The notes under the pieces are model-generated. The model saw only the letters and a program-made list of their open reading frames with translations. It was not told the DNA's origin and searched no databases. A DNA stretch of 36,020 nt from contig JAUJMG010000004.1 in NCBI GenBank assembly GCA_030446955.1, positions 1,393-37,412 of the forward strand. Reading direction: 5' to 3'. Positions 1,995 through 19,382 of this stretch are shown here, piece after piece. Each line of letters opens with the position of its first letter. The first letter of the stretch is position 1. The stretch is from Thermomicrobiales bacterium. Lineage in GTDB: Bacteria; Chloroflexota; Chloroflexia; Thermomicrobiales; UBA6265. Position numbers and translations under genes: made by a program.

Positions 1995-2101
1995 TCTGGT
2001 CCCTCGCCGTCGTCGGCGTTCCTGCGCCCGAACCGCGTCGTCCCGGGCGCCAGGCGATGCTCTTAGCCCCGCGAGCCGTTCGCTGAGTTGATCTGGTCGT
2101 C

Positions 2102-2872
2102 CTAATCTTGCTCGTCGTCCGCGCCGGCCCGCGTCGGAGTGGCCAGGAGGGCTGGCTCACTACCCTCGCGGCTGGCCAGATCCGCCCGCTCAAGCTCTGT
2201 GAAGCCGTCGATCATGGTCCGGTAGACGCGCTCCACCAGGTCTGGATCGATGCTGCTGTCCCTGGCGAAGCCTCGTACCCCGGCGATCACCTGCTCGACT
2301 CGTCGGGGCGCCGCCGCCTCCTCGGGACTCTGCTTGAACCCGGCCGCCTGGCGCACGTAGGCGCCGCGCTCCGCCAACAGATCGACGAGTTGTTCGTCGA
2401 CCCGATCGATATTGGCCCGGGCGTCCTCCAGGGTGGCGCACTCCATGACGCGGCCGTTGCCCCGCCGGGGCAGCAGGTTCCGTTGTCTCAGCTCAGAGCG
2501 CAGTCCGCTTGGCATCCCCCGCGCCGCCGGCAGGCGGACGAAGTTCCGTACCGCGCGGTACTGCGCCGCGAACCCGGCTTCTTCCACGCCGAGTGCTCGC
2601 AGCAGCCCCTCCGCTGTCGGCGGCTGGATCTCCCACCGCGGCGCGCGCTTATCCATGTGGCGGAAATCGTTCGGTGCCCGCTCGACCGGCGGCTTCGGGG
2701 CGCGCGTCGCTGGGCGTGGCGGCGCGCCCGGTCGGAAGCCGCCCTGATGCGGTGCCGCCGGCTGCCGGGGTTGAGTCGGCCGGTTCTGGCGCGGCGGCCC
2801 CGGCGACCGCGGCGGAAATCTGTCTCGGCGGTCCATCCTCATCCCCCTCATCAGGTCGCTGACCCGGCTCAC
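2102..2872 (-). CDS. chorismate mutase (AroQ-type) domain protein with a long Pro/Arg-rich N-terminal region
   Basis: The C-terminal ~110 aa ('LEDARANIDRVDEQLVDLLAERGAYVRQAAGFK ... PRRVEQVIAGVR ... VERVYRTMIDGFTELE') look like AroQ chorismate mutase. G/C dominates codon third positions through the N-terminal part, so the long form is plausible. An alternative start is ATG 2446 (114 aa). Confidence 0.55.
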   Translation of the reverse strand: MSRVSDLMRGMRMDRRDRFPPRSPGPPRQNRPTQPRQPAAPHQGGFRPGAPPRPATRAPKPPVERAPNDFRHMDKRAPRWEIQPPTAEGLLRALGVEEAGFAAQYRAVRNFVRLPAARGMPSGLRSELRQRNLLPRRGNGRVMECATLEDARANIDRVDEQLVDLLAERGAYVRQAAGFKQSPEEAAAPRRVEQVIAGVRGFARDSSIDPDLVERVYRTMIDGFTELERADLASREGSEPALLATPTRAGADDEQD

Positions 2873-2992
2873 CGCACGGCCAGGAACCGCCCCGCTCGGC
2901 GCGCTACCTTTCCAGGCAACCCGCGTGCCGCCGCCCCGCGCCCGCCCTCTGGCCTCTGACTACAGGCGTCTAGCGTCCGGCATCTACCGCCT

Positions 2993-5302
2993 CTACATAA
3001 CCGCCGGGGCTTCGATGCCGAGCAGATCCAGGCCGTTGGCCAGGGCCTGCCGCGTCGCGGCCACCAGCGCCAGCCGCGCCGAGCGGGTCGGCTCGGGGGA
3101 CTGGAGCACCGGGCAGGCGTGGTAGAAGTCGTTGAAGCGCTTGGCCAGCTCGTAGACGTAGTTGGTCAACAGCAGCGGACGGTACTCCGCCGCCGATCGC
3201 TGCACCTCCTCCGGCAGCGCCGCCACCGCCTGGAGCAGTCCCAGTTCCGTCGCTTCCGGTTGCTCCGAACCGAAGTCCAATCCATCGGCAAAGCCGAGAA
3301 GGTGCTCCTCGGTTGCGCCCGCGTGCTCCAGGATGCGGCAGGCGCGGGCATGGGCGTATTGCACGTACGGGGCGGCGTGGCCGTCGAAGGAGAGCGCCTC
3401 CTCCAAGTCGAAGACGACCACCTTGGTGATGTCCCGCGCCAGCATCGCGTACTTGAGAGAGCCAATCCCCACTTGCCGGGCCACCTGCTCTTTCGCCTCG
3501 CTCGACAGGTCCGGGTTCTTCTCTTCGATGATCTCCCGCGCCCGGACTAGCACCGCGTCTCGGATGTCGTCGTAGATCGGCACGTTGCCCTTACGAGAGG
3601 AGATCACCCCTTCCGGCAAGCGCACCATCTCGTACCCGATGTGCTGCGCCTGCGCGGCCTGGTCGAACCCGGCCAGCTCCAGGATCTTGGCGATCTGCTG
3701 GAAGTAGAGTGACTGTCGCACGTCCACCACCCAGAGCGCACGGTCGACCCCGTACTCCTCGAACTTGAGCTTGGTGAGCGCGAGGTCCTTGGTGGAGTAG
3801 AGGGTGGTGCCGTCAGAGCGCAGGATCGGCAGGGTGCGGTAGGTCTCCGTCTCCAGCCCCAGCTTGGCGTCGATCTTCACCACCGGTAACCCGTCACTGA
3901 TCTCGGCCAGTCCCTGTTCGAGCATCTCCTGGACCATCCGGCGTCCTGGCTCCTCCACCTGGCTCTCAAAGAACCAGACGTCAAAGCGGGCGCCCAGTTC
4001 GGCGAAGATCCGCTCGAAGTCGGCCAGGCTCCAGCCGCGCGTCTCCTGCCAGAGCGCGACAAATTCCTCGTCCTGCCGCTCCCAGCGCTGGAAGGTCTCC
4101 TTGACCTCCTCCCGCCACGCGGGCACCTGCGGCCACCACTCGTCCATCTGTGGGGCGAGCGCCTCCCACCGGGCCAGCCGCTCTTCCGGCGTCGTGGTCG
4201 GTTCGGGTACGCCCTCAACGGGGACGTAGGGCTTCTGGTTCTCCACCTCGTCCCGGAGCTGGGCCCCGACGATCGGCCAGAATTTGGGGATCACGTCCTC
4301 CTCGCGCAGGAGGTCTTCCTTGATCTCCTGCGCGTGGGTCATCCGTCCGAGCAGGTAGGCGATGTCCTCCCCCTCGGTGTTCATGCGCCAGAGGTACTTC
4401 AGCAGGCGGTCGATCGCCGCCACGAAGACCTGATCCTCGCGTGCCAGCAGGTGGAGCAGATCCAGGACATCCTTGCGGAAGTTGAGGCGCGCGTCGGACT
4501 CGGCGTAAATCTCGCCCAGCCAGCGACCGCGTGCCGCCGGGTCGGCCGGCTCCTCCCCCCGATGGAATCGCTCGTAGCACCAGAGGCACTTGATCACGTG
4601 CATGCCGATGTCGCCGATGTAGGTCGCGTCCTTCACAGGGTAGCCGGCGGCCGCGAGGATGCGGCTCGTGGCGACCCCGAGGCAGGTGTTGCGCAGGTGC
4701 CCGACGTGGAACGCCTTGTGGGTGTTGGGCTGGGAGTGCTCCACCATCACCACCTCACCGCGGGGCCCTCCCCGGCCGTAGGCGACTCCCTGCCGCAGCA
4801 CCTCTCCGACGAGCCGGGCCGCGACCGCGTTGGCGTCAAAGGAGATGTTGACGTACCCGCTGACCGCCTCCACCCGCGCGAATCCATTCTGCCCCGCCGC
4901 AATCCGAACCGCGACCTGCTCGGCAAGGTCCTGCGCCCGCGTCGGAACGGCCTCGTTGACCTTCTTCTTGGACTCTTTCTTGGAGAGTCCCTCCAGCGCG
5001 CCGGTCGCCTCCAGTTCACGCAGCACGACCTCGCTGGCGAGCGCCCGGCAGACGGAGGAAGCGGCGCCCCATGTGCCGGCAAAGGGGATGGCACGCAGCT
5101 CCACCGGCCGCTCCCCGAACCCCAATTCTGCAAGCGCCGCCGTGATCGCCGCGGCCGCCTGGCGCTCCTCTTGCGCCACGATCCCAGTCTCTGAGGCCGG
5201 CGCGGGGTGCGTCGTCCCAGTGGCGACCGGAGCGGCGGTCGTCGCTTCCTCGGCGTCACCAGCGCCGTTTGACATCGTTTGAAGGTCGCGTGGCTCGCTC
5301 AT
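2993..5302 (-). CDS. argS: arginine--tRNA ligase
   Basis: 769-aa ORF with the class I HIGH motif 'HSQPNTHKAFHVGHLRN', the ArgRS N-terminal domain and a DALR-type anticodon-binding C-terminus ('YVQYAHARACRIL'). There is a long insertion between the HIGH region and the catalytic core. The exact start is uncertain (M1 or M10). Confidence 0.93.
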   Translation of the reverse strand: MSEPRDLQTMSNGAGDAEEATTAAPVATGTTHPAPASETGIVAQEERQAAAAITAALAELGFGERPVELRAIPFAGTWGAASSVCRALASEVVLRELEATGALEGLSKKESKKKVNEAVPTRAQDLAEQVAVRIAAGQNGFARVEAVSGYVNISFDANAVAARLVGEVLRQGVAYGRGGPRGEVVMVEHSQPNTHKAFHVGHLRNTCLGVATSRILAAAGYPVKDATYIGDIGMHVIKCLWCYERFHRGEEPADPAARGRWLGEIYAESDARLNFRKDVLDLLHLLAREDQVFVAAIDRLLKYLWRMNTEGEDIAYLLGRMTHAQEIKEDLLREEDVIPKFWPIVGAQLRDEVENQKPYVPVEGVPEPTTTPEERLARWEALAPQMDEWWPQVPAWREEVKETFQRWERQDEEFVALWQETRGWSLADFERIFAELGARFDVWFFESQVEEPGRRMVQEMLEQGLAEISDGLPVVKIDAKLGLETETYRTLPILRSDGTTLYSTKDLALTKLKFEEYGVDRALWVVDVRQSLYFQQIAKILELAGFDQAAQAQHIGYEMVRLPEGVISSRKGNVPIYDDIRDAVLVRAREIIEEKNPDLSSEAKEQVARQVGIGSLKYAMLARDITKVVVFDLEEALSFDGHAAPYVQYAHARACRILEHAGATEEHLLGFADGLDFGSEQPEATELGLLQAVAALPEEVQRSAAEYRPLLLTNYVYELAKRFNDFYHACPVLQSPEPTRSARLALVAATRQALANGLDLLGIEAPAVM

Positions 5303-10671: not shown

Positions 10672-11565
10672 ATGTCGCTCATCTCTTTTCCGGTCCTGCC
10701 CCCGCTCCACGGTGGAGCGGGTGTCCCGACCGGCCCGCTCAACAGTCATTGGTACCTGGAGCCCACCATCGGCCTTGGCGTCTTTGGCGCCGCGGTCGCC
10801 TACCTGCTCTGGGTTGGGCCGCTCAATCGGCGTCGCCCGGGCGCGGCGGAGCGGCCGGTGACGGGGGGGCAGGTTGCCTGCTTCCTCGGCGGATGCGCGA
10901 CGTTGCTCGTTGCCCTCGGGCCGCCTCTGGACGACTGGTCCGACTACTATCTGCTCAGTGCCCACATGGTCCAGCACTTGCTGCTGGTCCTGTTGGCGCC
11001 CCCGCTGCTGCTGCTCGGCCTCCCTGCCTGGGTGCTCCGACCGCTACTGCGCTGGCGGCTCGTGGCGCGCACCGGGTACCTGCTGACGCGGGCCGTTCCG
11101 GCCTTTGGCATCTCCGCTGCCGTCATGGTCGTCTGGCATGCGCAGCCGTTCTACGATGCCGCGTTGGGCAGCGCCCCGATCCACATCCTGGAACACCAGC
11201 TCTTTTTGGCTTCGGCCTTGCTGGCCTGGTGGCCGGTCGTCGGACCATTGCCGGAGTGGCCGCGCCTGGCGCTGCCGTTGCAGTGCCTCTACCTCTTTCT
11301 CCAGACCCTGCCCGGCGGCGTTGTTGGCTCCATCATCACCATGGCCGCACCGGGCCTCTACGAGCACTACCGCGACGCGCCTCGCTGGGGAATGAGCCTG
11401 GCGACGGATCAGGAGGTGGCAGGCCTCCTGATGTGGGTGGGCGCGTCCACGATCTACCTGATGCTGATTTCCGTCATCTTTTTCCGCTGGGCTGCTCAGG
11501 AGGAAGCGAAAGAAGGGCAGCCTCCGGCCTCCGTTCGCCCGCGCTCGGTTGCCACCCGTCCGTGA
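10672..11565 (+). CDS. ctaG: cytochrome c oxidase assembly factor CtaG (caa3_CtaG-type membrane protein)
   Basis: 297 aa, polytopic, with 'SAHMVQHLLLVLLAPPLLLLGLP' and 'ILEHQLFLASALLAWWPVVGP', typical of Bacillus-type CtaG. It is the last gene of the cta operon. Confidence 0.8.
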   Translation: MSLISFPVLPPLHGGAGVPTGPLNSHWYLEPTIGLGVFGAAVAYLLWVGPLNRRRPGAAERPVTGGQVACFLGGCATLLVALGPPLDDWSDYYLLSAHMVQHLLLVLLAPPLLLLGLPAWVLRPLLRWRLVARTGYLLTRAVPAFGISAAVMVVWHAQPFYDAALGSAPIHILEHQLFLASALLAWWPVVGPLPEWPRLALPLQCLYLFLQTLPGGVVGSIITMAAPGLYEHYRDAPRWGMSLATDQEVAGLLMWVGASTIYLMLISVIFFRWAAQEEAKEGQPPASVRPRSVATRP

Positions 11566-11722
11566 TCCTATTACAAGAGTGGGCGACGCCGGGACGTGCC
11601 GGATACAGCGAGACCTCCCTGGTGCCTCTATACTGTGCCGATTCCGAAGCATGAGGCTGCCCGCGCACGGTCCCTTGCAAGGCATCCTGTCGTCGGTGGC
11701 TGACCTCTGGAGTCTCTCGGCC

Positions 11723-12085
11723 ATGGTTGCGAAGTCGCCTCCCCGCCTACCTGCCCTCACCGCCTCAGAGGCCGAGGCTAAGCGCGAGCAGGAGGAGATG
11801 AGTGCCGCCTGGGCCTTCATCTGGATCCTCTTCGCCTTCAAGATGGCCACGGTCTTCCTGATCTACTGGGCGTCCCAGTCCTACGACACCGGCATGTTCC
11901 TCGTCGCCACCACCTGGTTCTGGCTCATCATCCCGGTCATCGCCTGCGCCGCTCCTCTCCTGTTCCGCTATCGCCTGCTCAAGGTTCGCCGGCGCCGCGC
12001 CCAGCTCCGTCGCTCGGAGTGGCTGCTCGATGACGACCTCCCTGACCCTCAAGCGGGAACGCCGGCGGCAGGCGCGCGCCGCTAG
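11723..12085 (+). CDS. hypothetical small membrane protein
   Basis: Two hydrophobic helices ('AWAFIWILFAFKMATVFLIYW', 'FLVATTWFWLIIPVIACAAPLLF') followed by a basic tail. The start is uncertain: ATG 11723 has GGAG 11 nt upstream, and other in-frame starts exist. Confidence 0.4.
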   Translation: MVAKSPPRLPALTASEAEAKREQEEMSAAWAFIWILFAFKMATVFLIYWASQSYDTGMFLVATTWFWLIIPVIACAAPLLFRYRLLKVRRRRAQLRRSEWLLDDDLPDPQAGTPAAGARR

Positions 12086-12237: not shown

Positions 12238-12867
12238 ATGGTCGCCAAGCTGAAGCGCCAATTCATCACGCCGACGCTCATGCCGATCGCGGTCGCGATC
12301 GTCGTCGCCGTCATGATCATCACGATCGGCGAGATGCTACTGGCCTTGTACCAATCCGGGCGGCCAGAACTGCAGCGTGTCGAGTTGTGGGTCGGCACTC
12401 TGCTTTCGCTGGCCATCCTTGGCGTGGCTGCATTCCTCTCCACCCGGCCGGCGGGGCGCCTCGGACCCCTGGATCGCGAGGTTGCGATTGGCAAGCAGGA
12501 GTTCTTTGCTCCGGAGTTGCCGCCGGTGGATGTTGCCGCCCGCAACGGCCCCCTTGGCACCGTGGATGACATCACCGCGGGGTACATGCTCTACGCCCGC
12601 AACGGCGCCCTTGCCCGGGTGGTCGGCATCATCCCGGGGTCGGAGGAGTTTGGCCGCCGCTTCCGCGGCTTCATCTATGCCCAGGGCGTTCATGGGGCGA
12701 GCGACGAACTCTGGATTCCCTATGAGGCAGTAATGGCCGTCTACCCCGAGACCCAGTCTGCCTTTCTCGCGATCAAGGGGGATGAGACCGAGCACTTTGG
12801 TTGGAATCGTGCTCCCGCCAGCATGCGCCGCGGCGGGCACCCCAATCATTTCCCATCGGCAGGATAG
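12238..12867 (+). CDS. hypothetical membrane protein (2 N-terminal TM helices, soluble C-terminal domain)
   Basis: ATG 12238 follows GGGAGAAGG. TM helices 'LMPIAVAIVVAVMIITIGEMLL' and 'WVGTLLSLAILGVAAFL'. I did not confidently recognise a family for the C-terminal domain; it may be PRC-barrel-like. Confidence 0.55.
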   Translation: MVAKLKRQFITPTLMPIAVAIVVAVMIITIGEMLLALYQSGRPELQRVELWVGTLLSLAILGVAAFLSTRPAGRLGPLDREVAIGKQEFFAPELPPVDVAARNGPLGTVDDITAGYMLYARNGALARVVGIIPGSEEFGRRFRGFIYAQGVHGASDELWIPYEAVMAVYPETQSAFLAIKGDETEHFGWNRAPASMRRGGHPNHFPSAG

Positions 12868-13089
12868 GGCCGGAGCCTGAGAGCTTATCGACTGATTTGG
12901 AGCCGTCGGCTAGCGAGGAGACCGCGCCTCGCGGCCGCCGGTGCCGGCTCTCTCTCAGTCTGCATCCACTCCTACTTTGGCTCACTGCCGGGCTGAGCCT
13001 CCGGTAGCGCGCTGCTGTGCTCCGCCGCACGGGAGTATCCAAGCCCGTGTCATCTTCCCTCGCCCGCGCCGATCGTCCAAGGACGTCCG

Positions 13090-13884
13090 ATGCCGCCGCT
13101 AGACCTGCGGACCGTAACCGCCACTCGCTACGTCACCCCGCTCCGGGAGGGCGGCTCCCTGCCCGCGATTGTCGAGGCGGACGACGACGGGCTCTACGTC
13201 CTCAAGTTTCGCGGCGCCGGCCAGGGGCCGAAGGCCCTGATCGCGGAGTTGGTCGCCGGGGAGATCGGCCGCGCACTCGGCCTGCCCGTGCCGGAGATCG
13301 TGCTGGTGGAACTGGACCCCGTGCTCGGGCGAGCGGAGCCGGACGAGGAGGTCCAGGATCTCGTCAAGGCAAGTGCCGGGCTCAACCTGGCTCTGGATTA
13401 CCTGCCGGGGTCCCTCGCCTTCACCCCGGCGGCCAAGCCGCCCCCGGACCCCGCCCTCGCCTCCGCGGTGGTCTGGTTCGACGCCTACGTCACCAACGTT
13501 GATCGCACCCCGCGCAACACGAACCTGTTGCTCTGGCACCGCCGGCTCTGGTTGATCGACCACGGCGCCGCACTCTATGTTCACCACGCCTGGGGCGACT
13601 ACCTAGCCCGCAGCGCCTCGCCGTTCCCCCAGGTTCGAGACCACGTCCTGCTCCCGTTCGCCGACGAAGTTTCGACCGCCGACGCCGACCTCCGGGACCG
13701 TCTGACGCCCGAGTTGCTGACGGGCATCATCGAAGCCATCCCTGATACCTGGATGCTGCCTGACCCGGCTTTCGCTGGTCCGGATGCCCAGCGCGCTGCC
13801 TATCTTGCGTACCTGCTCGCGCGCCGGGATGCCTCCCGTGCCTTTGTGGAGGAGGCGGTACGTGCTCGCGCGCAACTCGTTTGA
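13090..13884 (+). CDS. HipA-like protein kinase family protein (single-domain, no HipA N-terminal domains)
   Basis: 'RYVTPLREGGSLPAIVEADDDGLYVLKFRGAGQGPKALIAE', catalytic-loop-like 'TNVDRTPRNTNLLLW', and 'LWLIDHGAAL'. AAGGA lies 7 nt before the ATG. Confidence 0.75.
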   Translation: MPPLDLRTVTATRYVTPLREGGSLPAIVEADDDGLYVLKFRGAGQGPKALIAELVAGEIGRALGLPVPEIVLVELDPVLGRAEPDEEVQDLVKASAGLNLALDYLPGSLAFTPAAKPPPDPALASAVVWFDAYVTNVDRTPRNTNLLLWHRRLWLIDHGAALYVHHAWGDYLARSASPFPQVRDHVLLPFADEVSTADADLRDRLTPELLTGIIEAIPDTWMLPDPAFAGPDAQRAAYLAYLLARRDASRAFVEEAVRARAQLV

Positions 13885-14263
13885 GTACTCCATTATCCGG
13901 ATCGTGCCCCGGGTGGAGCGCGGCGAATTCGTCAACGCTGGAGTCGTGCTCTTTTCTCGGCCGCGGCGCTTCCTGGATGCTCGTGTCCACCTGGACCCCG
14001 CCCGCCTCGCCGCCCTCGCGCCGGACCTAGACCTGGCCGCCGTGCGTTCCCACCTGGAGTTGATTCCCCGGTTGTGTGCCGGCGATGGGGAGGCCGGTCC
14101 CATCGCCCGGCTCTCCCAGGCGGAGCGCTTTCACTGGCTCGTCGCCCCCCAGAGCACGATCGTCCAGCCCTCTCCGGTCCATTCGGGGCTTTGCGACAAC
14201 CCCTCCGACGCCTTGGAGCGCCTCCTAAAGAGCATGGTCCTCCCACCCATGGCCTCCTCGTGA
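13862..14263 (+). CDS. DUF3037 domain protein
   Basis: GTG 13862 is preceded by GGAGGAGG (13848-13855) at 6 nt and overlaps the kinase gene by 23 nt. 'FEYSIIRIVPRVERGEFVNAGVVLF' is the signature I associate with DUF3037. Confidence 0.75.
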   Translation: MLARNSFEYSIIRIVPRVERGEFVNAGVVLFSRPRRFLDARVHLDPARLAALAPDLDLAAVRSHLELIPRLCAGDGEAGPIARLSQAERFHWLVAPQSTIVQPSPVHSGLCDNPSDALERLLKSMVLPPMASS

Positions 14264-14438: not shown

Positions 14439-16346
14439 TTACCCCGCTTGCCCCGCTCGCCCCCTGATCCCTCCGCGGCCTCCTTGGCCTGGCTCGGCGG
14501 CCGCGCCTGGGAGCCCACTCTGGTCCCGCTCCGGGTCCAGAGCAGTGCCTGAAATCGTTGGAGATGCCGGGGGAGGTGATGGATTGATAGGGCTCCATTG
14601 CGGCGGCGCGGCCATGCCAGACAGCTGTACGCTGTCATGGTCACGGGGAAAAACCTCGTCGGTGCTCTTGCCAACGACATCGATGATCGTGGAGGGCGTC
14701 CATGTATCGGCGGAGGCGGCGAGCAGTGCCCTCCCGTCGGGTGACCAGGTCAGGTGACCGGCGAGTGGCCCGGGAGCGTCGATCCAGATCTCACCGGTCC
14801 CCAGGGTGCGAATGCGTACCTGTATCCCATTCTCCACGTAGGCGAAGCTTGTGCCGTCGGGGGACCAGGCCGGCATTTCCGCGTCCGTGTCATTAGCGCT
14901 CACCGGCGTCAAATCGCCCGTGCTGAGATCCAGGAGGTGGACGGAAGAGAGCTCCGAGCCATACCCCGCGTTCGCCTGGAGGGCTAGCACGAGGAGCCGT
15001 TCTCCCACCGGCGACCATGCCAGCCGAAAGGCGTCCGGCAGACGCCCGCTGGTGACGCTGTGTGTCTCGCCAGTGGCAAGCGTCATCACTTGCACGTCGC
15101 CATCGCCGAACCGCGCTCCACGCCCCGAGTCCTCGTCAACCTCGGTCCGGTCGAGGCCACGACTGACAAAGGCGAGCCGGTCTCCGCCTGGCGACCAGGT
15201 AGGTGGACCGGCATAGGCGAATCGGCCGCCAGTTAGGTCCGTCTCGATCCCCGTGCTGGTGTCCACCACCCGGGCGCTGATCCTGCCCTCGAACAGGTTT
15301 TCATCAAACGCGGCGAGACTTGAGTAGGCAATCTTGGTGCCGTCCGGGCTCCAGGCCGGCCACCAGCGCAGCAGGACCCGATCGGCGAACTTGGTCAGAC
15401 CGGTGCCATCGCTGCCAACGACGTAGAGTGCCCCGGCGAGCGAGGAGGGATCGGTCCGATCAGCGGCGACGAAGGCAATCCGACTGCGATCGGGACTCCA
15501 GACGGGCCAGGCGGCAAAGCCCGTGCTGGCGAGGAGCCGCTCATCGTTGCCGTCAGGTCCGGCCAGGTAGACAGAGCCGTCACGCGTGAAGACGATGGGC
15601 GCATGCTCACGTCGAATCGCCGCCAGGCGGTCAACGAGGGCATCATCGGGGGCGACGGCAACAAGGGCTGCAAGGGCTCGCTCCGCCCCGAGCCAGTCCC
15701 GCTGGGCCTCAGCGACGTCCACCCGGCGCCGGAGATCGGCGTCGCGGCCCGCTCGTGCCTGCTCCAATAAGGTTCGGGCTTCCTGGTCTGCGGGAAGGTC
15801 CCGGGCCACCGGCGTCAGGAGCGTGATCGCCTCGTCATAACGCTGCGCGTCCAGCGCCGCCCGCCCTTGCCGAACCGCGTCTTGGTATGGAGCGAGGATG
15901 TCCGCTCTCCGCGCTTCGGCGTCGCGATAGCCGGCGGCGCTGGCATACGCGGCAAGCGCGACGGCGGGATGGCCCGTTGCCGCTGCTTCATCGGCGCACG
16001 CGTACCAGCGGGCTCGCTCCGCCTGCTCCGCCCGGTACTCCGCTCCGAAGGCGGCACTCACCCCCAGAAGCATCACCAGCGTCGCGGCGTAGAGCGCGCG
16101 GAGGCGCCTTCCGCCCCTCGGCGTTCGGTGGCTCCTCTGTCGTTGCCGTTGCCGTTGCGCGTCGCCGCCTGGCAGGACCCCGACGACATCGCGACGAGCG
16201 CCGTCAGTCCCCGCACTAGCAGAGGGCGCGCTGCTGACCGCCCGCCAGGATGGGCGGCCGTGTCCAACCGTCGGGAACGGCAAGGCGCAGTTCACGCAGC
16301 GGTCAGTGAGAGATGAGTTCGCGGTGCCGCAAGCGGTGCAGAACAT
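14439..16346 (-). CDS. zinc-ribbon / TM / TPR-like / TolB-type beta-propeller (PD40 repeat) protein
   Basis: N-terminal 'CTACG...CVNC' zinc ribbon, one TM helix ('LYAATLVMLLGVSAAFGA'), a helical Ala/Arg-rich region, then repeated 'W(S/A)PDG..IAF/AY' PD40-like blades ('WPVWSPDRSRIAFV', 'WPAWSPDGTKIAYS', 'PTWSPGGDRLAFV', 'LAWSPVGERLLV', 'PAWSPDGTSFAYV', 'LTWSPDGRALL'). Confidence 0.75.
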   Translation of the reverse strand: MFCTACGTANSSLTDRCVNCALPFPTVGHGRPSWRAVSSAPSASAGTDGARRDVVGVLPGGDAQRQRQRQRSHRTPRGGRRLRALYAATLVMLLGVSAAFGAEYRAEQAERARWYACADEAAATGHPAVALAAYASAAGYRDAEARRADILAPYQDAVRQGRAALDAQRYDEAITLLTPVARDLPADQEARTLLEQARAGRDADLRRRVDVAEAQRDWLGAERALAALVAVAPDDALVDRLAAIRREHAPIVFTRDGSVYLAGPDGNDERLLASTGFAAWPVWSPDRSRIAFVAADRTDPSSLAGALYVVGSDGTGLTKFADRVLLRWWPAWSPDGTKIAYSSLAAFDENLFEGRISARVVDTSTGIETDLTGGRFAYAGPPTWSPGGDRLAFVSRGLDRTEVDEDSGRGARFGDGDVQVMTLATGETHSVTSGRLPDAFRLAWSPVGERLLVLALQANAGYGSELSSVHLLDLSTGDLTPVSANDTDAEMPAWSPDGTSFAYVENGIQVRIRTLGTGEIWIDAPGPLAGHLTWSPDGRALLAASADTWTPSTIIDVVGKSTDEVFPRDHDSVQLSGMAAPPQWSPINPSPPPASPTISGTALDPERDQSGLPGAAAEPGQGGRGGIRGRAGQAG

Positions 16347-16463: not shown

Positions 16464-17381
16464 TCAGCGGGCGGGATGGGACGGTGGTAACCCTGCGTTC
16501 ACCACCGCCGGCTTGATCAGGGCACTGGGTGGTTCGGAGGCAACCTCGTCACCGCGTGGTCCGTCGTACCCTGGGTAGCCATACGTTTGTCCGTCCCGAG
16601 CGCTTTGTTGGTTGAGTACCGCGCCCACGACACGGGCAGAGCCGTGGTGCAAGGCACCAACGGCTCGACGCAGTGCCTCGGTTCGGGTGCGCCCGGCCTG
16701 GCAGACGAGAATGACGCCATCGGCGCCGGTCGCCACGACAAGCGGGTCACTGACGGCGAGGATCGGCGGGGTATCGATGAGCACGATGTCTGCCGTCCGG
16801 GCGATCTCCGTCACAAGAAGGCGAAATCGATCCAGGCTGAGCAAATCGGCCGGGTTCGGGGGGAGGGGACCGCTCGGGATCAGCGCCAGGTGCGTATCGA
16901 CCATCACCTTGAGGTCCTCCCACGGCGGCGCTTCACGGTGGGTGAGCAGAGTCGTCAGTCCACGGTCGTTGCGGACGCCGAAGATCCGGTGTTGATTGGG
17001 CCGGCGGAGGTCGGCGTCGATGATCACCGTCGCGAGCCCAGCCTGGGCCATCGCCACGCCGAGGTTGGCGGTGACGGTGCTCTTACCCTCCCCGGGACCA
17101 GGGCTCGTGAGACAGAGGCTGTCAATCTCCTTGGTCGCTGCGGCGAACTCAATGTTGGTCCTTAACAAGCGGATTGACTCCGCTTGGGAGGAGACGGGCT
17201 GCTCCCGCAGAAAGAGTTGGTTCCCATTCCCGCGCACCTTCGGCAGGGTTCCGATAGCAGCTAGAAGCGGCGCCCCGATCAGGGCCGGAAAATCCGTATC
17301 GGCCCTGACTGTGTTGTCTAGGAATTCCAGGGCCGCCATCGATCCGGCGCCGAGGAGAAGCCCGGCTAAGGCCGCCAGCAC
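16464..17381 (-). CDS. BY-kinase (CpsD/CapB/Wzc-type tyrosine autokinase) cytoplasmic domain fragment
   Basis: Walker A 'SPGPGEGKST', 'VIIDADLRRP', 'DIVLIDTPP'. Only a GTG at 17381, inside a hydrophobic helix and without an RBS, is available as a start. It is in frame with the upstream Wzz fragment across a single TGA. Confidence 0.8.
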   Translation of the reverse strand: MLAALAGLLLGAGSMAALEFLDNTVRADTDFPALIGAPLLAAIGTLPKVRGNGNQLFLREQPVSSQAESIRLLRTNIEFAAATKEIDSLCLTSPGPGEGKSTVTANLGVAMAQAGLATVIIDADLRRPNQHRIFGVRNDRGLTTLLTHREAPPWEDLKVMVDTHLALIPSGPLPPNPADLLSLDRFRLLVTEIARTADIVLIDTPPILAVSDPLVVATGADGVILVCQAGRTRTEALRRAVGALHHGSARVVGAVLNQQSARDGQTYGYPGYDGPRGDEVASEPPSALIKPAVVNAGLPPSHPAR

Positions 17382-17429
17382 CGTGAAGAAGGGGACCCGC
17401 GGCGCATAGGGCTCATCGGGCGGGGCCGC

Positions 17430-18125
17430 TCACTCGGCGACAGTGACCCGGGCCTGCGCGGCGGCGTTGCTCAGGTCGATCTCATTGAGTGTCAGCAACA
17501 GATCATCGGAGCGTGCCTGGAGCCGCGCCAGGCTGTCCCGGAGCGCGGGGAGCTGCGCCCGGGCCTCGGGGTCAGTTGGGGCCGCCGCGCTGAGATCCGC
17601 AATCTGCCGCTCAACCTCAGTGACGCGGCTCTGGGTATCTCTGATCTGGGCCGAAATCGCTTCACGCGGCTCGCTGCTGAGCTGTGCGGCTTGCTGAGCG
17701 ATAAAGACGTTGAACTGCTCCGCGATTGCGTTCGCGATCGCCGCTGCCCGATTCGGCTGGGTGTCCGAGACCCAGACCGTGATCAATTGTGTCTCCCGTC
17801 CGGCGCGCGCTGAGACGTTGCCCTGCAACTCCTCAACACGGTACGGCAGCCGAAGCTGATCGATCACCGGCTGGAGCACATCCCGGGTCGTCAGAAGTTC
17901 CTCGTACGTTGCCGCGAGACTCTGGCTTCCTCGGATCGCGTTGAAGTCCCACGAGTCGGAGCCGCTCTGTCCGGCGTTGATGAAGAGCCGGGCGCTGGCC
18001 GCGTAGACGGGTTGCTGCTGAGAACTAACCCAGAAAGCGCAGCCCGCCGACGCCACCGCCAACAGCAGGGGCAGCCACCACCAACGGCGAGCCATCCGCA
18101 CGAGTTGCTGGGGACCGATCTCCAA
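17430..18125 (-). CDS. Wzz / chain-length-determinant N-terminal domain fragment of a Wzc-like protein
   Basis: 'LVRMARRWWWLPLLLAVASAGCAFWV' (TM1), then a coiled-coil periplasmic region. The likely start is TTG 18125, 6 nt after GGAGG (18136-18132). ATG 18095 and the track start 18248 are alternatives. It ends at TGA 17432-17430. Confidence 0.75.
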   Translation of the reverse strand: MEIGPQQLVRMARRWWWLPLLLAVASAGCAFWVSSQQQPVYAASARLFINAGQSGSDSWDFNAIRGSQSLAATYEELLTTRDVLQPVIDQLRLPYRVEELQGNVSARAGRETQLITVWVSDTQPNRAAAIANAIAEQFNVFIAQQAAQLSSEPREAISAQIRDTQSRVTEVERQIADLSAAAPTDPEARAQLPALRDSLARLQARSDDLLLTLNEIDLSNAAAQARVTVAE

Positions 18126-18272
18126 CTGGAACCTCCAGCCGATGCTCGGGAGCGCAGTCCTATCCCTCAGGGCGGGCCAGGGGACCCGGGGATAAAAACG
18201 CGAGAAGGCAACAGTGTACTGCCACTTCGCAGCGGTCGCTGGGCCCAAACTGAGAAAAGGGTCGGGGCCGCC

Positions 18273-19382
18273 TCACCATCCGGCGGAGTAGCTCGCGAGA
18301 CTCTCCCGATAGACGCCGAGGGTGCGCTGGAACATGCGATCGAAGGTGAATGCGGCTTCGTACCGGCGACGACCTGCCACGCCCATCTCCTGGCGGCGCG
18401 CGGCGTTGCCGGCCAAGGCGACCAGTCTCTCCCGAACCGCAGCCACGTCGCCCCGCGGTACGACGTATCCGGTCACGCCTTCCTCCACCGCCTCCGCTGC
18501 CCCGCCCACATCTGATACCACCACTGGAAGGCCGGCGCGCATCGCTTCCAGCGTGGAGCGTGGGAACCCTTCCCAGTGGGAGATCAGGGCGAAGACCTGC
18601 GCCCGTGCCAGCACCTCCGCCACGTCGCTCCGCTCGCCCAGAAAGCGGACCCGGTCAGCCACGCCGACCTCGTGAGCGAGAGCGCGCACCGTTGCTCCGC
18701 TCGGCCCGCCCCCGACCAGGTCCAGGTGCACACCGTCGATGTCGCGGAGCGCCCGGAGCAGCGTGGCATGGTCCTTCTGCCGATCCATGCGGGCCACCAT
18801 CGCGATGCGGACCGGGTCTCCGGCCCCGGGCCGTGCCCTCAGGCTGGCGCACACATCCGGCATCCCGTTGTGGATGGTTACCAGTTGATCTGGTGCCATC
18901 CCGGCCGCGACGCCGATGCGTCGATCATGCTCGGAGACGCAGACGATCGTGGCCGCAAGTGGCGCCGCTGCCCGTTCCAGCAGCCGGTAGGCCGTCCGCT
19001 GTGGCTCGCGGACCCCATGGGTGAAGGCCCAGCCGTGGGCCGTGAAGAGACACGGGACGCCGGTCGCCTTGCCCGCCAATCGTCCGAGCCAACCGGCCTT
19101 GCTGGAGTGGGTGCTGATGAGGTCCGGCCGGAAGGCTCGAATGGCTCCCCGGAGCGCGACGAACGCGCGCGCATCTCGGCCGGGTCGAATCTCCCGGCCG
19201 AGATGCCGGCAGGCCAGGGTGCGGACCCCAGCAGCGGTCAGGGCGTCCGTGTAGGGGCCGGCTTCTCCAGTGATAACCAGCGGCTCGTGCCCATCCTCGA
19301 CCAACCGCCTTGCCAGGTCTCGCACGTGAATCTGGGCACCGCCGATGGTATCCGATCGGGTGATCAGGAACGCGATCTTCAT
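18273..19382 (-). CDS. glycosyltransferase family 4 (GT-B, GT1/GT4-type)
   Basis: 'MKIAFLITRSDTIGGAQIHVRDLA' N-terminus and a C-terminal 'EGFPRSTLEAMRAGLPVVVSDVGGAAEAV' EX7E-type motif. RBS GAAGGGAAGG. Confidence 0.85.
   Translation of the reverse strand: MKIAFLITRSDTIGGAQIHVRDLARRLVEDGHEPLVITGEAGPYTDALTAAGVRTLACRHLGREIRPGRDARAFVALRGAIRAFRPDLISTHSSKAGWLGRLAGKATGVPCLFTAHGWAFTHGVREPQRTAYRLLERAAAPLAATIVCVSEHDRRIGVAAGMAPDQLVTIHNGMPDVCASLRARPGAGDPVRIAMVARMDRQKDHATLLRALRDIDGVHLDLVGGGPSGATVRALAHEVGVADRVRFLGERSDVAEVLARAQVFALISHWEGFPRSTLEAMRAGLPVVVSDVGGAAEAVEEGVTGYVVPRGDVAAVRERLVALAGNAARRQEMGVAGRRRYEAAFTFDRMFQRTLGVYRESLASYSAGW

Follow-up and report, generated by a model that had tools for sequence, protein, structure and literature searches.

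A HipA-type kinase gene overlapping a DUF3037 gene in a Thermomicrobiales genome: a candidate minimal form of the HipAD kind of module

Introduction

A 36,020-nucleotide stretch of the genome of a Thermomicrobiales bacterium (GenBank assembly GCA_030446955.1, contig JAUJMG010000004.1, positions 1,393 to 37,412 of the forward strand; this whole stretch is called the window below) contains a gene encoding a 264-residue HipA-type kinase, the end of which overlaps the start of a second gene encoding a 133-residue DUF3037 protein. The question raised by this locus is what the two proteins do together and whether the small protein restrains the kinase, serves as its substrate or is a subunit of the same enzyme. 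An original prediction, made from the DNA alone, described the overlapping genes, and the open reading frames (ORFs), motifs and coordinates it gave were all recovered in our analysis. The same prediction held that neither family had an experimentally defined role. That statement is outdated, as the pair type is represented by a candidate defense system (PDC-M66) and by two validated examples, DS-6/HipAD and a pair linked to Retron-Sda1.

The Sda1-linked pair consists of a HipA-like kinase and a DUF3037 protein encoded beside the retron, and protects Escherichia coli from phage Bas51 without the retron. Deletion of the kinase gene abolishes defense and deletion of the DUF3037 gene is toxic, which was read by the authors as a kinase toxin neutralized by DUF3037 (PMC12548924). 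DS-6, since renamed HipAD, was validated as an anti-phage system (DefensePredictor 2026; PMC13092281); for HipAD, PMC13092281 cites Brenes & Laub 2025. Defense is lost when DS-6A carries a catalytic mutation (a D139A strain is given in the supplement) and a DS-6A-DS-6B complex is predicted by AlphaFold3 with ipTM values of 0.76-0.79 (PMC13092281). The toxin-antitoxin-like reading suggested in the original prediction fits these experiments, which were done on distant homologues of the window proteins.

We propose that the window pair is a self-contained, translationally coupled module of the HipAD kind in a minimal form, in which a kinase toxin would be held in check by a DUF3037 inhibitor. We hold this reading with moderate confidence. 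It is carried by the family membership of both proteins, the intact and conserved catalytic residues of the kinase, the obligatory pairing of the two genes and the conservation of their coupling across distant bacteria.

The kinase and DUF3037 protein families

The 264-residue protein matched only one Pfam family at E ≤ 0.1, PF20613 (HipA_2), with an E value of 8e-21 and a score of 74.8 bits (cut-off 27). This places it among the HipA-type kinases and bears out the earlier observation that the N-terminal domains of HipA are missing. The protein contains the motifs YVLKFRGAGQGPKALIAE, TNVDRTPRNTNLL and LIDHG, and an alignment of 26 homologues showed that its first 60 residues and all of the catalytic residues are invariant or nearly so. 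From these motifs we infer that Lys39 binds ATP and that LIDHG binds magnesium. The 133-residue protein matched the whole of the PF11236 (DUF3037) model (positions 1-118 of 118) with an E value of 2e-44 and a score of 151 bits. The hidden Markov model (HMM) searches proposed in the original prediction therefore succeeded with Pfam for both proteins but not with NCBIfam, no model of which matched either one. Searching the PDB by sequence gave nothing meaningful for either protein.

Since comparison of profiles of the kinase and of E. coli HipA with hhalign gave a probability of 1% and no alignment, the link to HipA derives from the Pfam family and clan and from weak fold matches. The AlphaFold2 model of the kinase was of moderate quality (pLDDT 75.8), and its matches in the PDB were kinase-like folds only, none of which reached E ≤ 1e-3. 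These were CtkA (E 4.7e-3, TMq 0.48-0.51), HipA 4pu4 (E 0.046, probability 0.85) and HipT 8ezr (E 0.14), with further matches to Fam20A, golgi casein kinase, VPS34, CotH and amicoumacin kinase. Note that GenBank records of the kinase cluster (P0242 and P0243) are titled 'aminotransferase class I and II', a title for which Pfam gives no support. True PF00155 aminotransferase genes are second neighbors of the pair in 3 of 104 cases and may be the source of that title.

The DUF3037 protein was modeled by AlphaFold2 as a small alpha/beta fold (pLDDT 92.2, pTM 0.86). HORMA domains were considered as a fold match from the PDB and rejected as insignificant (best E 0.44, TM 0.24). Four uncharacterized phage proteins in BFVD have the DUF3037 fold (A0A6G5YJM1, A0A516KTX2, A0A6J5NRF1 and A0A516KZK0; E 1e-4 to 8e-4, probability 1.00, TMq 0.51-0.61). 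These proteins are of 125-287 residues, one being as short as the window protein.

Conservation of the pairing and of the gene overlap

Homologues of each protein fall into at least about 8,000 clusters at 90% identity. Among the best 120 homologues of each, most are of about 260 residues (kinase) or 130-140 residues (DUF3037) and few calls are longer. In a scan of one genome per species this short-form clade was found in at least 597 species of about ten bacterial phyla, which include Chloroflexota, Acidobacteriota, Cyanobacteria, Myxococcota, Gamma- and Betaproteobacteria and Bacteroidota; the carriers also include Rubrobacter, Ignavibacteria and Abditibacteria.

A gene-neighborhood survey of the kind proposed in the original prediction gave a uniform picture of adjacency and order. 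In all 80 of the genome loci found through the kinase, a DUF3037 gene lies directly 3' on the same strand and is always of the short form, and in 76 of the 76 metagenome loci found through DUF3037 that had room upstream, the kinase gene lies 5'. Pooling both directions, all 156 loci had the partner gene as a direct neighbor. No conserved third gene was found within 5 kb of the pair, and the largest cluster of neighboring proteins was present at 16 of 81 loci with sides and strands mixed.

The median identity of the kinases encoded at the 81 loci was 61% (64% within phyla and 60% between them, with a range between phyla of 58-66%), and the nearest-neighbor kinase came from the same phylum in 62 cases. 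The identity matrices of the kinase and its partner correlate (r 0.67), as expected of co-inheritance. DUF3037 proteins overall form 1,782 clusters at 50% identity, only 41 of which have E ≤ 1e-30 to the window protein. Setting these 41 close clusters against the 7,911 or more clusters at 90% identity indicates that the short clade is numerous but very compact. The short DUF3037-only form appears to be commoner than the form having a long partner.

The translational coupling claimed in the original prediction is upheld by overlap of the two genes at all 81 of the surveyed loci, the overlap being exactly 23 nt in 58 of these. The 23-nt overlap is annotated by RefSeq in Bacteroides finegoldii, and gene callers agree on it in sibling metagenome-assembled genomes (MAGs). 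The start assigned to the partner gene, a GTG lying 23 nt inside the kinase gene and preceded by GGAGGAGG 6 nt upstream, could be seen in the sequence as described. An in-frame upstream ATG at position 13784, which would give a 159-residue product, was rejected in favor of this GTG because position 1 of the DUF3037 HMM falls at the GTG, because the overlap of exactly 23 nt recurs in the 58 homologous loci and because the gene caller used on the source contig gave the 133-residue product.

The internal Shine-Dalgarno site was examined across the surveyed loci. GGAG or GAGG is present at this site in 70 of 72 non-Bacteroidota loci versus 1 of 9 Bacteroidota loci (Fisher p 1e-8). In Bacteroidota (loci L047, L053, L058, L065, L066, L074, L075 and L078) the Shine-Dalgarno sequence within the FVEEA codons is replaced, for example by AAAGAAGC coding for V-K-E-A, and the Bacteroidota loci lacking the internal site keep the 23-nt overlap. 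Shine-Dalgarno initiation is largely unused by Bacteroidota. The loss of the site in this phylum thus argues that the internal Shine-Dalgarno sequence is a functional overlay, and at FVEEA a translation signal constrains the protein sequence only in those phyla that use the signal.

The locus and its surroundings

The features of the pair and its immediate neighbors are collected in Table 1. On the 5' side lies a caa3 oxidase operon (COX2, COX1, COX3 and CtaG) followed by two domain-less ORFs. On the 3' side a convergent PD40 beta-propeller gene is followed by a polysaccharide locus (Wzz, ParA-like and GT4), in keeping with the setting between respiratory and polysaccharide genes given in the original prediction.

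Table 1 Features of the kinase-DUF3037 locus (window coordinates)
Feature	Position	Strand	Remarks
Kinase gene, HipA_2-type (PF20613)	13090..13884	+	ATG start; 264 aa, pI 4.8; predicted toxin/effector; from ORF and Pfam
Partner gene, DUF3037 (PF11236)	13862..14263	+	GTG start; 133 aa, single domain, pI 7.9; predicted kinase-binding inhibitor (antitoxin-like)
Shine-Dalgarno-like AAGGA	13079..13083	+	6 nt 5' of kinase ATG; read from sequence
Partner Shine-Dalgarno GGAGGAGG	13848..13855	+	Inside kinase codons F-V-E-E-A; 6-nt spacer to GTG 13862
Overlap of both reading frames	13862..13884	+	23 nt; translational coupling
Lys39 codon (YVLK)	13204..13206	+	Predicted ATP-binding lysine; invariant in 26 homologues; aligns with DS-6A YVLK
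Catalytic-loop codons Asp138-Asn143 (DRTPRN)	13501..13518	+	D138, R139, T140, R142 and N143 invariant in 26 homologues
Asp157-His158-Gly159 codons (LIDHG)	13558..13566	+	Predicted Mg-binding motif; invariant; aligns with DS-6A LIDHN
Hairpin directly 3' of stop codon	14264..14293	+	8-bp stem, 14-nt loop; possible, unproven transcript end
ORF between ctaG and kinase gene	11549..12085	+	No Pfam domain
ORF between ctaG and kinase gene	12238..12867	+	No Pfam domain
PD40/Tricorn-like beta-propeller gene	14439..16346	-	635 aa; convergent with the pair
Start of polysaccharide locus	16464..19382	-	ParA/MinD-like ATPase, Wzz chain-length protein, GT4 glycosyltransferase

Neither of the two upstream ORFs has a Pfam match, and the pair has, as the original prediction stated, no adjacent HipB-like helix-turn-helix (HTH) gene. 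These ORFs are probably real lineage-specific genes, because sibling MAGs have genes called at these places, with products of 120 aa and 209/221 aa. They are not kept beside the pair in other lineages, and the 209-aa upstream ORF of the window bears no relation to the genes lying 5' of the pair in a Chloroflexota relative with a 77%-identical kinase, where the pair sits elsewhere. In that relative (L169 / L170, positions 2068-3654, minus strand) a gene encodes a 528-aa protein with weak matches to NB-ARC / AAA_16 and HTH_77. Together with a GerE-type regulator, this protein is encoded about 2.3 kb 5' of the pair, an arrangement seen in that Chloroflexota lineage only.

An inverted repeat (arms GAGCCAGT and ACTGGCTC) directly follows the partner stop codon, where the original prediction had placed a terminator belonging to the pair. 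The hairpin is real, but its role as a terminator was not borne out. A U-tract is absent, the calculated fold of -22.2 kcal/mol is no better than that of shuffled sequence (z -1.2), and a scan of the surroundings of the pair found neither a canonical terminator nor a sigma-70 promoter. Farther downstream, the PD40 protein has an N-terminal CxxC...CxxC motif (MFCTACG...CVNC) resembling a zinc ribbon, and the GT4 glycosyltransferase of the polysaccharide locus also matches PF20706 'GT4-conflict' (E 3e-11), far more weakly than it matches the generic GT4 models.

Proposed mechanism and alternative explanations

In the module we propose, the 264-residue protein would be an active protein-kinase-like enzyme (Lys39, Asp138/Asn143 and Asp157), the free activity of which would arrest growth. 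The DUF3037 protein would be translated from the same mRNA by ribosomes reaching its start codon within the 3' end of the kinase gene and, because the start is reached in this manner, the kinase would never be made without its partner. The partner would bind and silence the kinase. Were the partner displaced or outrun, as happens on phage infection in relatives, the freed kinase would phosphorylate a cellular target, probably a highly conserved one, and growth would stop. Toxicity of the kinase, its neutralization by DUF3037 and a role in phage defense are extrapolated from the distant homologues, and a specific anti-phage role for the window pair seems to us rather doubtful. Autoregulation by DNA binding is not expected here, because the partner lacks the C-terminal domain of DS-6B that is predicted to contact DNA.

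A number of findings weigh against this proposal. Identity to the validated members is only 26-27%, which is distant homology as judged from sequence, and the PADLOC profile PDC-M66B matched the partner (E 5.5e-12) over positions 2-128 of 281 only (45% of the model). The partner is without the C-terminal extension of about 150 residues (DUF1829-like or DNA-binding) of the validated antitoxins, and its structural model predicts a compact and well-folded protein, unlike the typical labile antitoxins. Moreover, kinases that are about 60% identical between phyla are very slowly evolving for a defense or toxin-antitoxin protein. The genomic context is likewise not that of mobile cargo. No close relatives were present in 50,697 phage records, which gave two distant HipAD-type matches only, and a pattern search through 2.9 million viral contigs gave no confirmed relative. 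Only 9 of 72,556 plasmid records matched, and the 7 close matches were all on non-mobilizable replicons ranging in size from 131 kb to 11.9 Mb. At 52 loci, the first and second neighbors of the pair (208 genes) are mostly of housekeeping, transport and sensory function, with only a handful of matches to defense models, and neither an integrase nor a transposase is among the 25 most frequent neighbor families. Five sibling assemblies from the lineage of the window all have the pair in this position, with the cta operon on one side and the PD40 gene on the other. Finally, GC content is even along the window and no tRNA or Rfam match was found within it, which is not what defense cargo looks like.

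Slow evolution, the lack of a mobile context and a stable position fit housekeeping growth control at least as well as defense. The pair could thus be a conserved housekeeping or stress-signaling kinase having DUF3037 as its regulatory subunit, a stably inherited regulator (for example, of translation in starvation or development). This explanation, which we consider possible but unlikely, draws on the 58-66% identity of kinases between phyla and their almost invariant N-terminal 60 residues, on the 41 clusters at 50% identity against 7,911 or more at 90%, and on the recovery of the nearest kinase from the same phylum in 62 of 81 cases with synteny kept within lineages such as Rubrobacter. The housekeeping character of the neighbor genes points the same way, as does the failure to find the clade on mobilizable plasmids or in the phage and viral collections searched. 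HipAD provides a contrast: of the 5,426 complete E. coli genomes, 284 (5%) carry it, always on the chromosome and with identity of ≥99% in 282 of these, and it lies beside cI in a lambdoid phage. However, there is no fixed genomic partner pathway, the context differs between phyla, and the only experimental data available for this pair type are of defense and toxicity. Identity within phyla is also barely above that between phyla (means of 64% and 60%), a pattern that agrees with repeated horizontal transfer and leaves the defense reading viable. A broader form of the argument, which we put forward only tentatively, is that the short clade of HipA_2 kinases with DUF3037-only partners is an ancient, slowly evolving growth-control module acting on a universally conserved target rather than phage-defense cargo, and that the phage-borne HipAD is a derived, weaponized offshoot in which the partner gained a C-terminal domain.

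The original prediction also allowed for a kinase/substrate module. DUF3037 might serve the kinase as a substrate or as an activating cofactor, or a small molecule might be what the kinase acts on, and the pair would then be an enzyme with its substrate or a two-subunit enzyme. Fixed 1:1 co-expression would suit an obligate heterodimer, some of the structures nearest to the kinase model are lipid or small-molecule kinases (VPS34 and amicoumacin kinase), and the stable DUF3037 fold lacks any solved relative, such that the activity of this protein is not constrained by precedent. Among homologues Ser98 of DUF3037 is invariant and Thr99 nearly so, but Ser98 is not kept in DS-6B, where it aligns with Glu. 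Moreover, the toxicity seen upon loss of the Sda1 DUF3037 gene is what one expects if DUF3037 inhibits the kinase rather than serving as its substrate or activator, and the best fold matches (CtkA, Fam20, HipA and HipT) are protein kinases or relatives of the kinase fold. We therefore regard this explanation as improbable. That the pair is an inert remnant or a chance pair of ORFs deserves almost no credence, and the conservation data refute it: neither ORF is truncated, the catalytic residues are invariant, homologues of both proteins number in the thousands and the overlap geometry is kept across phyla.

Significance

The kinase plus DUF3037 pair has newly entered the anti-phage catalog, only by way of two mobile examples having long partners, and the minimal DUF3037-only form is conserved at the level seen for core cellular proteins. 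If the short form works like HipAD, the DUF3037 domain alone would be the kinase-neutralizing unit and the target of the kinase would probably be a very conserved host component. In that case, because DUF3037 has no solved structural relative, a structure of the kinase-DUF3037 complex would also reveal a new mode by which HipA-type kinases can be silenced. Should the short form prove not to serve in defense, it would be a widespread and unstudied bacterial signaling module.

Comparison with known systems

PDC-M66 is a PADLOC candidate system modeled on the form having a long partner. Its kinase profile, PDC-M66A, matched the window kinase with an E value of 2.5e-21, residues 5-165 falling on profile positions 9-176 of 270. 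In BLASTP comparisons the window kinase had 26% identity with DS-6A across 217 residues (E 6e-16), with window D138 aligned to DS-6A D139, and the partner was 27% identical to DS-6B over residues 7-125 only (E 5e-8). The genes annotated as 'HipA toxin' and 'HipD antitoxin' in Escherichia phage PhiR5_1 encode proteins identical to DS-6A and DS-6B, and in this phage HipAD (L081, positions 2441-4014) lies directly 3' of the cI repressor gene. No experimental test of the short form having a single-domain partner was found in the literature consulted.

Like HipAD/DS-6, the window pair has a HipA_2-type kinase of about 250 aa encoded first, an overlapping DUF3037 gene second and no HipB, and the YVLK, N-x-DRT and LIDH motifs are common to both kinases. 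The overlap is 4 nt in HipAD/DS-6 versus 23 nt here. DS-6B is a protein of 275 aa with a DUF1829-like domain at residues 163-260 (PMC13092281 supplement), and this C-terminal domain of HipD has no counterpart in the window partner. HipAD is also an accessory system in E. coli and has cI as its neighbor in a lambdoid phage, whereas the window clade was not found in the phage collections searched. The Sda1-linked pair shares the two-gene arrangement of kinase and DUF3037. In contrast to the window partner, its DUF3037 protein has a C-terminal region resembling the DNA-binding proteins of type III retrons, and an HTH gene and the retron lie alongside it, neither of which is present here.

The relationship to HipBA and HipBST is more remote. 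The kinases belong to the same Pfam clan (CL0016), PF20613 having been merged with PF07804 in KINtaro, and the logic of a kinase toxin checked by a small partner may be the same, by analogy. Unlike these systems, however, the window pair has no HipA N-terminal domains and no adjacent HTH HipB, and its partner is encoded downstream rather than upstream of the kinase and has an unrelated fold. The HipA_C kinase core of HipBA (PF07804) was not matched either. The window pair is thus of a kind already known, as a candidate in PDC-M66 and as validated systems in HipAD/DS-6 and the Sda1-linked pair, and the copy described here is a short-partner, non-mobile and highly conserved variant of that kind.

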